Source: a virus (lineage: Duplodnaviria > Caudoviricetes). Taken from it: a DNA stretch of 64,000 nucleotides. The first letter of the stretch is position 1. Every line of letters starts with the position of its first letter. A program made the position numbers and the translations under genes. This document shows, piece by piece, positions 17,596-31,400 of the stretch. The stretch covers positions 27,734 through 91,733 of IMG/VR virus record IMGVR_UViG_3300032319_000326. The stretch is one strand, 5' to 3'. The notes under the pieces were generated by a model. The model did not search any database and was not told the origin of the DNA. It saw only the letters and a program-made list of their open reading frames with translations.

Positions 17596-18516
17596 ATGAT
17601 TAATAGTTCGGTTATAGAAACACTTTCAAAGTTGTTTAAGCAAAAACCTCAAATCCAAAAAGGCGGAGTTGAGATATTAGTGTTTTGTCCGAATTGCAAT
17701 CACCATAAAAGAAAACTAAATATCAATACTACAACAGGTTTTTATCAATGTTGGATAGGATGTGGATTTAGCGGAAAAAGTTTTCATAGTCTTCTAAAAA
17801 AAGTAAAAGCGACCAGAGATTTTTATGAAATCCTATGTAAGGATAGACCGCGAGTTTTAGATAAAATTAAAAAAGATGAAGTAAGACTTGAACTTCCACA
17901 TGAATTTCATCCTCTATATAAATCTTCTTCTGATCCGGCATACAAACACGCATTAAATTATTGTTTGAAAAGAAATCTTAGTATACACGAAATCGTTCGT
18001 TATAATATTGGTTATTGTACAGAAGGTCCATTTGCAAATAAAGTTATTGTTCCGTCATACGATAAAGAAGGAAATTTAAATTTTTATTGTGGTCGAGATT
18101 TTTATGGAGGTAAGTTTAAATATCGACTGTGTGATGGTAGCAAAGATATAATCGGATTTGAATTATTTACGGATTTCAATCAACCAATTACAATCGTCGA
18201 AGGACCATTTGATGCTTTATCTGTTAAATATAATGTAGTTCCATTATTTGGTAAAACGTTATCAAAAAAGCTTAAGTTGAAGTTGACGGAAAATAAACCA
18301 CCAAGGGTTAATGTCCTACTGGATAATGATGCTCTAACATCGAGTCTGAAAATATGTGAATTTTTAGTTTCTAACAATGTAGAAACACACTTAATTTTAT
18401 TGGACGGTAAAGATCCAAGTGACATTGGTCACGAAAAAACTTGGCAAACCATCAGCTGTGGTGTTAGAATGGATGAAAGTGTATTATACAGATATAAATT
18501 AATAAATAAACTATGA
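17596..18516 (+). CDS. DNA primase (Zn finger + TOPRIM)
   Basis: CPNC...CWIGC Zn-binding, VEGPFDA and LDNDA TOPRIM motifs. Confidence 0.85.
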   Translation: MINSSVIETLSKLFKQKPQIQKGGVEILVFCPNCNHHKRKLNINTTTGFYQCWIGCGFSGKSFHSLLKKVKATRDFYEILCKDRPRVLDKIKKDEVRLELPHEFHPLYKSSSDPAYKHALNYCLKRNLSIHEIVRYNIGYCTEGPFANKVIVPSYDKEGNLNFYCGRDFYGGKFKYRLCDGSKDIIGFELFTDFNQPITIVEGPFDALSVKYNVVPLFGKTLSKKLKLKLTENKPPRVNVLLDNDALTSSLKICEFLVSNNVETHLILLDGKDPSDIGHEKTWQTISCGVRMDESVLYRYKLINKL

Positions 18517-19223
18517 TCGTATTAAAAAATACCGACGATAAAATCAATTGTGTGATGCATGTTGCGGATATTCACATTCGTTTGACAAAACGACACGATG
18601 AGTATACATCTGTATTTGAAAGATTTTATAATGCATTAGACAAAGCTAAGACTTTAAATGCAATCTTAGTTATTGCAGGCGATGTTTTTCACAATAAATC
18701 CGATTTGAGTCCCGAGTGCGTTAAAATCGGAAGTGATTTTCTAAGAAATTGCGCAGATCGTGTGCCTGTAATTCTAACCGCTGGCAATCACGATGCTACA
18801 TTAGCAAATAAATCTAGACTTGACTGTTTAACCCCAATTGTACAAGCACTAAATCACCCTAATTTGTATTATCTCAAAAATACAGAGGTATTTCGCTTTG
18901 AAAATATATTGTTTAATAATTTCAGTGTATTTGATGATCCAGATAAGTACATAAGATACGAGGATATTCCGTCTAAATACCGTGTAGAGACGGATCATCA
19001 CATTGCATTATTCCATGGGCCAGTAAACAATGCTGTTACCGATGTAGGATATACTGTAAGCAATCGTGCTATTACAAATGAACTATTTGATGGCCATCAC
19101 ATTGCTATGTTGGGTGACATTCACAAACATCAAGTAATTCCAAATCCCGAAATAGTTGTATCTGAAGAGGAATTGATGAAATTAGACTTAAATGAATGGG
19201 AAATTGTGGAAGAAATTCCATAG
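18513..19223 (+). CDS. sbcD: Mre11/SbcD (T4 gp47-like) nuclease, N-terminal fragment
   Basis: DIH, GDVFH, GNHD, FHG and GDIH metallophosphoesterase motifs. The final motif is missing and is found in the next ORF. Confidence 0.85.
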   Translation: MIVLKNTDDKINCVMHVADIHIRLTKRHDEYTSVFERFYNALDKAKTLNAILVIAGDVFHNKSDLSPECVKIGSDFLRNCADRVPVILTAGNHDATLANKSRLDCLTPIVQALNHPNLYYLKNTEVFRFENILFNNFSVFDDPDKYIRYEDIPSKYRVETDHHIALFHGPVNNAVTDVGYTVSNRAITNELFDGHHIAMLGDIHKHQVIPNPEIVVSEEELMKLDLNEWEIVEEIP

Positions 19224-19307
19224 TTTTGTACAGAATTATGGAAAAGAGAGATAAAAAAATCCGATTTTGAAGTTGAGTTTTTAAAACATTTAGGCGATAA
19301 AATATGA
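19220..19307 (+). pseudogene. Remnant of a deleted endonuclease cassette between the two SbcD halves
   Basis: Begins with ATAGTTTTGTACA (also at 16654). Residual frame ELWKREIKKSDFEVEFLKHLGDKI* resembles a Vsr/DUF559-type C-terminus and overlaps the next start (ATGA). Confidence 0.5.
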
Positions 19308-21865
19308 AAAAATATGTAGTTAGAAAAAAGTATCCAGTGATTGCATACGCATCCAGTATGATTCAACAAAATCATGGCGAAGAACTTAAAGGTCATGGAT
19401 TTTTGATGTGGGATCTAAAGAGAAAAGTTTATAAACACTATGAACTAAAAAATGATTATGGCTTTTATACAATTGAAATAAATAAAGGTAAGTTAACAAC
19501 TGATATTAGTGACATCCCAAAGAAAGTTCGTATTCGTACACTTTGTTTCGAATCTATTCCATCTCAGGTAAAAGAGATTATTAATGAAGTAAAGAATAAG
19601 TGTGACATCATTGAAACTACATTCAATCGAATTGACGAACCATCAACGGATTTGACTTTAAAATCTGGCCAGATATTTGAAATTCACAACATTTTTGATG
19701 TGGATTATCAAAATAAATTAATTGAGGAAAATCTTTTATCTAAGAATGTTTCTTCCGATCTTGTCTATAAAGTCAAAGAGTTGAATAAAACTATTAATTT
19801 AGAAATACCAAAAGATAAAGCTCCAAAGAATATTCGTTGGAAACCAAAGATGTTTGAATTTGACAATATGTTTAGTTACGGAGAAGGAAACGTAATTGAC
19901 TTTACCAAATTAAAAGGCACAATTGGATTATTTGCTCCAAATGCAAGTGGCAAGTCTAGTATTATGGACGCTTTGGCATTTTGTGTATTCGATAAGTTTA
20001 GCAAAGGATATAAAGCCGTTCATGTATTGAATACTCAAAAAATGAGTTTTCGTTGTAAGTTTAATTTTGAAGTAAATGGAGTAGATTATTTCATTGAACG
20101 GGATGGTAAAGCTGATAAAAAAGGAAATGTCAAGGTTGACGTTAAGTTTTATAAGATCGAAAATGACAATGAAGTACCATTAAACGGAGAAGCTCGTCGT
20201 AGTACTAATGACATCATCAGAGATTATGTTGGTACTTACGAAGACTTTATTCTTACTGTATTAAGCATACAAAACAGTAAAGCCGGATCATTTATTGATT
20301 TGGGTCAAACAGAACGTAAAGATTTGTTGTGCCAATTTATGGGTTTAACTGTATTTGATCAGTTATATACAATTGCAAATGATAAGTTCAAAGAAACTAA
20401 CACATTACTTAAGAATATTAGTAAAGATCAGTTAATTGAGGAGTTGCAGAACGTATCTGGTAGTATAGATTTAAATAATATTAAAATATCAGAGTGCAAT
20501 GATAAAATCAAAGAGTACGAAGCTTCAAAAGAAACGTATAATAATAACTTATTAGAGTTATCTAATGACATTGTAAAAACTGCATCATTTGATTTGGATA
20601 TAACCATATTAGAATCAGAAAAGGTAAATCTTGATAACAGTATTTCTTCTTGTCAAATCGATATTGATCTTAAAAAGACTAAGTTTTCTGAAATAGAACT
20701 ACAGTTGACTGATTTGTCATCATCATTAAAAGCTTGTGAGAACATCGATGATGAATATGAACAATATAAGTCTTACAAAGATGAAGAAGTTAAAAAATCA
20801 TCCGAGATAGAAAAACTTAAAGTTGTTGTTAAGAATAAAATTGACAAACTTAAAAAGCTGGAAGATCATAAATACGATCCAAATTGTACTTATTGTACTA
20901 ATAACGTATTCGTAAAAGATGCAATCAAAACAAAAGAAGAGATTGAATCTGACAAAAACAAAGGAAAAATTTTGGTAGATGAATACAATTCTATCAAAAA
21001 GAAATTAGAATCATTTGGAGACATAGATCTTCGTTATAAAGAATGTCAGCGTGTTAATTCCGAAAAAGTTAAATTAGAAAAATCAAGAGAGATTTTATCT
21101 ACTGCAATATTGCGCGATGAAAATGTTTTGATTACTCGTCAGAACAAGTTAAAGACGGTGACAGACAATATTGATATTTTTTATAAAAACAAAGACATCA
21201 TTGAAAATAACTCCAAATTATTAAAAGAAATAAACGATGTTAAAAATATTATAAAATCAATCGAATCAGATATTAAAACTATTAATAGTCGATTGTTTTC
21301 AACTTCTACTGAAAAAGGAAAGTTGGAGCTTCAATACAAGAATACTACTGATCAACTAAATAAAGTAAAAGAGTTGGAAGATTCGTATGAGGCTTATAAG
21401 TTGTATACTAATATTATCAGTAGAGATGGTATTCCATATGAAATCATCACTAAAACTTTGCCTGAAATAGAAAAACAAGTTAATAATATTTTGCAACAAA
21501 TCGTTGAATTCTCTATCACTTTACAAACAGATGGCAAGAATATTATGACTAATATTGTTTATGACGATAAACGTTGGCCATTAGAAATGGCTAGTGGTAT
21601 GGAGAAGTTTGTTAGTGGTTTGGCTATCAGAGTAGCGTTAATCAATATTAGCAATTTACCAAGACCTAACATTATCTGCATAGACGAGGGATTTGGATGT
21701 GCTGATAGCGATCATTTGGGTCAAATGGGAGCGTTGTTTAGTTATTTGAAACATCAATTTGATTTTATTTGGATAATTAGCCATTTGGATCAGATGAGAG
21801 ATATGGTAGACGAACAAGTAGAAATAAAAAAAGAAAATGGTTTCAGTAAAGTAGTATATATTTGA
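19304..21865 (+). CDS. sbcC: SbcD C-terminal part fused to Rad50/SbcC (T4 gp46-like) ATPase
   Basis: IAYASSMIQQNHGE (SbcD late motif), Walker A APNASGKS, Zn hook CTYC, signature ASGME, Walker B ICIDEGF. Confidence 0.88.
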   Translation: MKKYVVRKKYPVIAYASSMIQQNHGEELKGHGFLMWDLKRKVYKHYELKNDYGFYTIEINKGKLTTDISDIPKKVRIRTLCFESIPSQVKEIINEVKNKCDIIETTFNRIDEPSTDLTLKSGQIFEIHNIFDVDYQNKLIEENLLSKNVSSDLVYKVKELNKTINLEIPKDKAPKNIRWKPKMFEFDNMFSYGEGNVIDFTKLKGTIGLFAPNASGKSSIMDALAFCVFDKFSKGYKAVHVLNTQKMSFRCKFNFEVNGVDYFIERDGKADKKGNVKVDVKFYKIENDNEVPLNGEARRSTNDIIRDYVGTYEDFILTVLSIQNSKAGSFIDLGQTERKDLLCQFMGLTVFDQLYTIANDKFKETNTLLKNISKDQLIEELQNVSGSIDLNNIKISECNDKIKEYEASKETYNNNLLELSNDIVKTASFDLDITILESEKVNLDNSISSCQIDIDLKKTKFSEIELQLTDLSSSLKACENIDDEYEQYKSYKDEEVKKSSEIEKLKVVVKNKIDKLKKLEDHKYDPNCTYCTNNVFVKDAIKTKEEIESDKNKGKILVDEYNSIKKKLESFGDIDLRYKECQRVNSEKVKLEKSREILSTAILRDENVLITRQNKLKTVTDNIDIFYKNKDIIENNSKLLKEINDVKNIIKSIESDIKTINSRLFSTSTEKGKLELQYKNTTDQLNKVKELEDSYEAYKLYTNIISRDGIPYEIITKTLPEIEKQVNNILQQIVEFSITLQTDGKNIMTNIVYDDKRWPLEMASGMEKFVSGLAIRVALINISNLPRPNIICIDEGFGCADSDHLGQMGALFSYLKHQFDFIWIISHLDQMRDMVDEQVEIKKENGFSKVVYI

Positions 21866-28456: not shown

Positions 28457-31400
28457 ATGCCAATACAAGAAGGCGGTACATTCGCCCCAACACAAAATAT
28501 AGTAAGTCCAGGAGTTTTCACAAGAGAAAATGACCTGTCAGGTTTAGCACAAGGAGTAGCCAATATCGGCGGAGCTATAGTGGCTCCGTTCGCCGATGGT
28601 CCAGCATTCTTCCCAGCAACAATTACCGACGTAGCCACTTTGGAAAGTCGTTTCGGTGTAGCCGATGGAGTGTATTATGGTCCATATACCGCAAAAGAAT
28701 ATCTACAACAACAAGGTATCGTTACAATTGTTCGTGTAGGTGGTCTAACTGGTTATTGGCAAAAGAATCCATTACTTGTTTATGCTCAACCAGGTGAATG
28801 GTTAAGAAATGGTGATGTAGGTGCAATTACAACTGCATCTTTCATGTATCTAGACAGTAATAGTTATACTACAAATATTAACTATCAACAAAGTAGTTCT
28901 GTTCTATTATCATCTGGTAGTAAGGCAGGATCCGCTGAGTTTAGAAACGTCACAAACTATTTCAGTGTAACTAAAGCTACTAACAGTCAAATTTTAAGTT
29001 TTGTATCTCAAATTTCAAGTTTACCAAATGCTTTAACACTATCAGCATCGTTAGCAAATTCTGCTAGTAAGGGTAAAGTATTGAAAATTACAACCAGTCG
29101 ATATAACTCTCTATTCACAGGATCCGCTGTTAGAAGAGGTAAGACTGTAAGCGATACTTCGGGATATACACTAGCAGCATTTGACTTTGCAAAGTCAAGA
29201 TTGTCTGGATCTTTGTCATCGAGTTATACCGTTAGATCCGAATCTGTACTAAAATTTGATACAGCAACTTTTGCTTCTACAGGAGGCAGTCAAAATGCAG
29301 CTCCAACTCCACCACAATCTTATTTCAGTTATTTAACAGCATCATATACACTGTCAGGCGCTAACATTGTATATGGATTAGTATTTGGTAAAAATTCATT
29401 AGCAGCATCTAACAATGTAAACTTTAGTTCTGTTACTTATAATTTAAATCTATCTACCGGAAGTTATTGTTTTAGATATGATAACTCCAGACTGTATTTA
29501 AGTGGTTCATCAAATATCACATTTGGTCCAAAAACAGCAACCAGTGCTATAGACGCAAATGCGGTTGATGGTGTAAATGGTCCTACTGGTTCCGGATTAA
29601 GTGGTAGTATTTTATATGCTGGTCAAAAATTGAATATTGGTGGAATTGGTCCTATATTATTTACACGTAAAAATGTAGATAACAGTGTTTATCCATATTA
29701 TTATTTGACTTCAAGTGTACAAGGACAAGCTATAAGTGAAGAAACAGCAATCTCTACAGCATTTGCAGAAAGTACAACTACAACCGCATTAGTATCCAGT
29801 TCTTACTTCGGCAATACTACTGGAAACGTAGTTGTTAATTATAATCCGACTGTAATTAATGTAGGTTCTACCGGATTAAAATATGTGAGTGGTAGTTTCG
29901 CCTCTATCAGAAAAGTAGGTACATGTGTTGCCGGTCTACAACTTAAAGGTGTAATTAGTGGTGCTTTCGGTAAATATAATGGAAGTTTCCAAAACCAAGA
30001 TAATCCAGGTAATGATCCGTGTAACCCAAATACAGCCGGTCGTCAAAAGATGATTTTGGCAGTATTGGCTAACACACAAAATGCTTCAACACAATTTAGT
30101 AACGATTATGAAGTATACGGATTCAACACTTCTACAATGTCACAATTAACAAGTAGTGTTTATCCATACAACGGATTAATCAATCCTAACGAAAACGTTT
30201 ATAACTTGGCATTGAAGTATAACTTCTCAAATACAAATGGTAGTATAAGTGCTGGTACATATGGTTATTATGATTTCAGCTTGAATGAAAATGATAATAA
30301 CTACATCAAGGACGTATTCGGAATTGATCCTACAGTAGGTAATCCTAACAAGCAAATCGCCGGTCAAAAGGTCGAAGCTGCTTACAACTACGTTCTATTC
30401 GAAGATAGTATTAAGAAGTTCGTAGCTGAAAAGACAAGTACTCTTGGTTGGAGATTGTTGGTAGGTACCAGTACTCTATCCGGCAGTTCAGTTATCGGCG
30501 AACCTCTAAAGTTTGTTGATCAGTACAGTACAAATCTAAGTGCTGGAGATAGTCAATTTGGTATTACAAATGCTTATACACCTTACATTTATAGTCAACA
30601 AATTGCTCCGTTCAGAAGTAGTGCGAATGAAGCTGCTGTCCCAACTAAGTTCCAATTGTTCAAAGTACATACTTTAAGCGACGGTAGTTTGAGTAACAAA
30701 AAATTCAAGATTGAAATTAGCAATGTTAAGTTAGCCGGTACAGTTCCAGGCAGTGATTGGGGTACATTCACCGTAGCAGTACGTGATTATAGTGATACGG
30801 ATAAGAAGCCAAAATATTTGGAAATCTTCCAAAATTGTAACTTAGATCCCGATTCCGCTAACTTCGTAGCCCGTAAAATTGGTAATAGATATGCTTACAT
30901 CACGTTTGCAGGTAAGATTATCCAATTTGGCGATTATGTTAATTTGAGTAAATATATTAGAATTGAAATGGCAGATGGATCTTATCCAGTTTCTTCTGTA
31001 CCATACGGATTCGAAGCATATAATACACCAATTGATAGTACTGCAAGTACATATATTCCTTATATTCAATATAGCAAGGCAAGTATTTATGGTTTAGCAC
31101 CAGGCAAGTATCCATCAGGTACTGTATTTGGTGCTGTACCACAAAGTGATGATGAAATTCTATCTCTATATCCAACCTCTTCGTTTGGTGTAGGTGTAGA
31201 AAATAATACTCAACAATACTTCAAACCACTACCATACTTTGGTAGTACAGATGCAAACGGTCAAAATATTGACTTCGATCTTGAAGATAAAGTTTGGGGT
31301 ACAAGTACAGCTAAATATTACGCGCAAGGCGTTCCAGCAAGTACTGGTTCACTACTAGCTCCAAGTTTGAGTGGTAGTATCCCAAGTACATATGATGCTG

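Follow-up and report, generated by a model that had tools for sequence, protein, structure and literature searches.

The window analysed here is a 64,000-nt stretch of a 92-kb fragment from a large tailed phage, whose genome is about 30% complete in that fragment. In this window, the phage SbcD-SbcC fusion gene (fused Mre11-Rad50) is divided into two separate ORFs in different frames, with 80 bp left between them by an endonuclease gene, and a short peptide has been added on each side of the break, acidic on the N-half and basic on the C-half. The two halves are probably reassembled non-covalently with the help of a small split domain formed by these two peptides. We infer that the tags bind each other and that they are needed for activity.

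The two ORFs follow RuvC-like and primase genes, and a tail sheath gene is located at 28457. The N-half gene (18513..19223, plus strand, 236 aa) encodes the phosphoesterase core of SbcD/Mre11, in which every metal-ligand motif as far as GDIH is present, and it matches Pfam PF00149 (Metallophos, E 7e-11) and phrog_100. Its TAG stop comes 29 residues past GDIH-KHQ, the last of these motifs. The C-half gene (19304..21865, plus strand, 853 aa) has its own ATG and nine extra residues ahead of a conserved nuclease strand, and encodes the last nuclease strands and the cap fused to the SbcC/Rad50 ATPase (PF13476; phrog_77, E 4.5e-50). It contains the remaining SbcD part and the whole ATPase, which goes beyond the preliminary description of this DNA. 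That description placed the cut after GDIH-KHQ with an acidic tail and a basic head, and this account is accurate. A calcineurin-like fold, five metal-ligand motifs and the linkage to SbcC/Rad50 identify the enzyme as SbcD/Mre11. As in intein-less fractured genes, a conserved enzyme gene is found as two adjacent ORFs and is contiguous in relatives. Among the 80 nearest IMG/VR loci, 79 (up to 95% identical) are unsplit and untagged with a short loop at the split site, and so is the gene of Microcystis phage Mel-JY01, the one cultured relative found. The sole tagged locus of the 80 (L065, 60% identity) has the same split site and homologous tags. Read-through of the N-half stop was considered and rejected, as the frame past the TAG ends at a TGA and differs from the C-half frame. 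Upstream, at the end of the primase gene (18453-18503), ten differences from the window are common to all four sequencing runs compared, which suggests that the window strain has a short recombinant tract there.

The 80-bp spacer (19224..19303, plus strand) is a scar of an 867-bp cassette, in which the start of a Vsr-like endonuclease gene is joined to its last ~50 bases. It matches the first 19 bases and the last ~50 bases of a 276-aa ORF of relatives (HMM E 1e-5). The ATG of the endonuclease remains at 19238, and its TGA overlaps the ATG of the C-half (ATGA, 19304-19307). An intact endonuclease gene is present between the halves in four relatives (L216, L217, L211 and L405). The gap ORF of relatives encodes 274-276 aa; its start resembles a zinc finger, and its C-terminal part is a Vsr-like domain, for which the Pfam Vsr model gives E 6e-5 to 2e-3, values that fail to reach the curated cut-off. 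Its alignment shows conserved E163, D197, FWH 213-215 and D237, which may represent the composite E, D, H, D set of the EDxHD motif, and no sequence match to solved structures was found for it. A sibling strain (~99% identical, from a second sample of the same study) has 26 additional bases following 19229, with another 761 beyond them, so that its spacer is 867 bp, equal to those of L216 and L405. Two deletions relative to this full-length spacer indicate that the window allele lost the endonuclease recently. Thus, the endonuclease remnant that had been proposed is real, on the evidence of both ends of the relatives' ORF and of the sibling's spacer.

The exact 80-bp form was not found in an independent sample, since the sibling run contains the long one, and in the sibling comparison there is a stretch of 23 nt that fits at either end of the deletion. 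These facts could be taken to mean that the short spacer is an assembly artefact, or, more generally, that the split allele is non-functional. However, the short form requires two separate deletions, the split is present in dozens of independent assemblies, and scars of 53, 61, 113, 130 and 133 bp exist in other lineages. Both ORFs are also intact and under purifying selection. Between the window and L216, dN/dS is 0.05 for the N core, 0.22 for the tail and 0.08 for the C-half, and the head differs by four synonymous and no nonsynonymous codons. An artefactual or dead allele is therefore very unlikely.

The split is not confined to this strain. About 75 tailed N-halves of 225-255 aa were found, 40-92% identical to that of the window, and the family occurs in four states: with the endonuclease present (gap 861-868, or 914 in LR756508.1), with a scar (gap 53-193), with overlapping stop and start codons (gap -4), and with both tags fused in one chain. 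The fused state is found at six loci of four distinct lineages (L154, L166, L205, L223, L230 and L245). A degenerate DNA pattern scan gave mostly chance matches, with several split and fused loci among them. In the endonuclease-free lineages with ATGA overlaps, both halves are kept at near-saturated synonymous distance (pS 0.8-0.9, pN 0.07-0.26). Purifying selection on halves and tags, together with such long-kept endonuclease-free lineages, argues that the split alleles work. Some other loci deserve mention. At L406:2673-3504 a full-length endonuclease is broken into ORFs of 69 and 200 aa, an intermediate stage of decay, and at L228:5699-5908 a 69-aa ORF between the halves overlaps both and is not recognisably related to the Vsr-like endonuclease. 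A second break in the SbcD-SbcC gene, at the Rad50 Walker A motif, occurs at L223:2528-5208 and at L229:5726-10012. This second break has the look of a split intein, with a Cys-initiated N-part of ~29 aa and a long C-part ending in His-Asn, and in L229 a 395-aa ORF lies between the putative intein parts.

A residual RNA hairpin (19216..19243, plus strand) spans the stop of the N-half and the ATG of the endonuclease. Its apex, 26 nt with a TATTTAT box, is what was deleted after 19229 in the window. A hairpin upstream of the endonuclease and an endonuclease stop overlapping the downstream start are both features of fractured genes. The TATTTAT box closely resembles the T4 late promoter in reverse complement. 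Besides its place in the endonuclease hairpin, it occurs within 40 bases upstream of 22 of the 92 long ORFs of the whole record, mostly 3-8 bases before the ATG. The hairpin also raises the question of ribosomal bypassing of the T4 gene 60 type, by which the halves would be joined in this allele. The last codon before the stop in the hairpin is CCA, and the C-half has a matching CCA as its codon 11, 113 nt downstream. This match was made by eye in the window allele and is not conserved across 11 loci: in five of them none of the first 16 C-half codons matches, and the Pro-to-Pro pair occurs in one subfamily only. Moreover, gap lengths lie between -4 and 868 nt, the hairpin is what remains of the endonuclease control hairpin, the region folds no better than shuffled sequences (z -1.5), and bypassing would skip the head, which has a conserved Met and is under selection. 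Bypassing is thus highly improbable.

Even less credible is joining of the halves by RNA splicing, or descent of the tags from a degenerate split intein. In phages of the same kind, split inteins flank endonucleases and have an acidic N-part and a basic C-part, according to the study of Dassa and colleagues (PMC2677866). However, splice-junction residues are lacking, with neither a Cys/Ser start nor a His-Asn end at the tag borders. No intein family was found in the Pfam scan of either half, the predicted fold differs from HINT, and the tags, about 38 aa in total, match an endonuclease repeat. As for introns, no significant match to a group I or II core between the halves was obtained in the Rfam search, and alleles with the -4 gap leave no space for one. 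The lack of intein and intron noted in the preliminary description is borne out by this inspection. The added terminal peptides are thus oppositely charged and occur with neither intein nor intron, again as in fractured genes.

The cassette moves between phages. In lake samples, unsplit alleles are 99-100% identical to the window on both flanks, with 19136-19357 replaced by 55 bases, and the coexistence of such near-identical unsplit alleles indicates mobility. A short segment of the host gene (19331..19357, plus strand) is carried with the cassette. Across the 24 bases that precede the shared motif, it is 92% identical to a split relative but 54-62% to the nearest unsplit alleles. From its sequence, the segment is likely an altered endonuclease target, and the apparent co-conversion of these 27 nt suggests that the endonuclease may cut the uninterrupted allele near the insertion site. 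Around 5600-5700 of L021-L023, unsplit alleles carry the split-type YASS variant, not YAGS; these are possibly endonuclease-resistant or reverted alleles. Between L216 and L405, the endonuclease is 82% identical, the tail 79% and the core 58%, a discordance indicating that the tail travels with the endonuclease and not with the host gene. Similarly, the tail of P0010 is 83% identical to that of the window and its core 58%, while this core is 96% identical to that of an unsplit phage, and between the core of L217 and that of an unsplit phage the identity is 98.5%. On a FastTree tree of 154 cores, 27 changes between tagged and untagged are counted, at least 17 of them forced by well-supported branches, a count in which gains and losses are not told apart. 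In LR756508.1, a 484-kb GenBank phage (L412:948-1865), a 305-aa zinc-finger-rich TnsA-like endonuclease lies between the tagged halves. It is unrelated to the Vsr-like one, and the same tags surround both.

The acidic tail (19134..19220, plus strand) has 29 aa and a net charge of -8, and the basic head (19304..19330, plus strand) has 9 aa and a net charge of +5. Across the family, tails keep a pattern centred on a helix with EEL and a strand with W-E-I and are always net acidic (-3 to -13, mean -7.1), and heads follow the pattern M-K-x-aromatic-x-hydrophobic-R-K-K. The tail is predicted to form strand-helix-strand, and the head a strand of the same mini-domain. The fold prediction (AlphaFold2) is of a fused form that occurs in nature, and contacts of the split pair are not part of its output; the protein as a whole matches Mre11/SbcD. 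In it, the tail forms a strand at 213-215, a helix at 218-223 and a strand at 229-233, and the head a strand at 236-239. The resulting strand-helix-strand-strand unit (pLDDT 92-94) is placed between core strands of the Mre11/SbcD fold, and the same elements are kept when the fused tag is predicted alone (pLDDT 78). The tight hairpin in this model suggests that tail and head pair by their strands. Complex prediction of the two tags alone scored 0.28, under the mark of 0.32, and is given no weight here. Fold searches with the 39-residue fused tag, too small a model for them to be informative, gave a best Z of 2.7 among PDB representatives and nothing under E 0.001 in BFVD. In the ESM Atlas, there was no usable match for the tag, only leads below 0.9 for a repeat protein.

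From these observations, the following course of events can be proposed. A mobile cassette would home into the phage sbcD-sbcC gene, which encodes a single chain, at one site and turn it into two genes. The cassette would comprise the tail codons, hairpin and promoter, the endonuclease gene and the head codons, together with a short stretch of co-converted sequence. The halves would be made separately and reassembled without splicing, with the final strands of the nuclease fold contributed by the C-half. The acidic tail and the basic head would together make up one small domain that adds affinity and register, and their opposite charges would favour pairing across the break. The endonuclease would then decay, and the split gene may afterwards be kept, become fused again or give way to an unsplit allele. 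The window strain would stand at the stage where the endonuclease has been deleted while split and tags remain. The preliminary description had proposed a non-splicing tag pair travelling with a homing endonuclease. Family conservation, fused forms, fold prediction and horizontal spread all support this part of it, with the pair probably reassembling the halves and the C-half providing one strand, but not its newness.

The main rival to tag-assisted reassembly is that the native nuclease fold and Mre11-Rad50 contacts suffice, the tags being endonuclease relics, solubility caps or a translation start for the C-half. Indeed, in the predicted fold of the fused form the C-half holds several nuclease core strands, which make a large natural interface. 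The tail itself derives from an endonuclease repeat, as described below, and the head is much shortened in a distant split locus (L408). In the split NrdA of Aeromonas phage Aeh1, the halves bind without their tails, which are needed only for higher assembly (PMC3045599), and hence the tags here could work indirectly. On the other hand, the hydrophobic positions and the Trp of the tail are kept across cores that are 40-50% identical, long after endonuclease loss, and tail dN/dS is about 0.22 as given above. Also, the tail is acidic where the repeat is basic, as expected under selection to pair with a basic head. This rival is thus unlikely, though it deserves more weight than the others, and reassembly helped by the tags is preferred. 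A second intact copy of the gene might in principle exist elsewhere in the genome, in the part outside the fragment.

What is the origin of the tags? A tail profile searched against 1.84 billion protein representatives gave eight matches, one of which is the tail itself, and the six inspected are endonuclease-like repeat proteins. The matched tandem repeats belong to GIY-YIG- and NUMOD3-bearing endonucleases (E 2e-5 to 9e-4). In P0242-P0248 the repeat is ~30 residues long and had no matching Pfam model in the scan. Tail and repeat align with a profile-profile probability of 96.6% over 23 columns, a score that is partly circular because the repeat set was found via the tail profile. Against the repeat model, 31 of 75 tails score above 10 bits, compared with none of 1500 shuffles, a control for composition only. 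Homology of tail and repeat is well supported. The repeat has a mean charge of +1.9 and starts with one more strand, whose hydrophobic pattern is like that of the head, a match of seven residues picked by pattern. The tag pair may plausibly have arisen from a repeat unit that was permuted and interrupted in the linker, and the permutation is regarded as a lead. A wider proposal is held with somewhat less than even confidence: that the tags, conserved and mobile, are the non-splicing equivalent of split inteins, namely a ~38-residue domain derived from an endonuclease DNA-binding repeat by circular permutation, with the C-half supplying the missing strand and the charges switched to opposite signs. 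It would exist in contiguous, split-with-endonuclease, endonuclease-lost and re-fused states, occur with two or more endonuclease families that are unrelated, and could be put to use as a very small portable heterodimer tag of 29 + 9 aa. If the 9-residue head alone does bind the 29-residue tail tightly, a useful small protein tag pair would result. A search for the tag pair at other split genes had also been suggested, and none was found with the tail profile, a weak one, among the 1.84 billion representatives. Likewise, no second tail-like sequence is present within the 92-kb fragment.

Several known systems resemble this locus. In Lake Gatun GOS data, an SbcD-like gene in two ORFs separated by a Vsr-like ORF and with no intein was described at one locus, with 25 extra C-terminal and 9 extra N-terminal residues that are left uninterpreted in the portion of the paper used here (Dassa 2009; PMC2677866). 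Compared by that description, it shares with the window the upstream hairpin and the endonuclease stop overlapping the next gene, and differs in that the window endonuclease is deleted to a scar. In Aeh1, mobE separates nrdA-a from nrdA-b, and oppositely charged tails are essential while no splicing occurs, an arrangement named as a solution distinct from splicing (Crona 2011; PMC3045599). The idea of a third solution besides introns and inteins has therefore been in print since these two studies, and the established principle limits the surprise. In both Aeh1 and the present case, a free-standing endonuclease splits an enzyme and its insertion brings charged tails, but the host enzyme is another one, the Aeh1 endonuclease is HNH, and the polarity is reversed, with a basic tail and an acidic head. 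Moreover, Aeh1 is one phage only and its tails are expected to be non-conserved (PMC3045599), whereas here a conserved module, predicted to fold, is found in about 75 proteins. The present case offers a concrete candidate for the origin of assembly tails, a point left open by Crona et al. (PMC3045599). It also illustrates how a selfish nuclease can reside, with no splicing, in a phage repair gene that is conserved, and that this gene remains split once the nuclease is gone. The split-intein genes of the gp41-1, NrdJ-1 and IMPDH-1 type (PMC2677866) share the path from contiguous insert through endonuclease split to endonuclease loss, as well as an acidic N-part and a basic C-part, and differ from the tags here, which lack protein splicing and the intein fold and form a much shorter module. 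In T4, mobA lies between genes 39 and 60, and again an endonuclease cassette has repeatedly entered the gene of a phage DNA enzyme at a single site, and there are tail-like extensions (10.1101/2022.08.31.505936). Unlike T4 gene 60, the split SbcD family keeps no common gap length, and neither matched codons nor a bypass structure are conserved in it. Relative to these systems, and to the 2009 locus as described in that portion of the paper, what is added here is the recent endonuclease loss of the window strain, the breadth and mobility of the tags, their fused forms, a second endonuclease family and the repeat homology, by which a single observation of 2009 becomes a large family with a testable mechanism.
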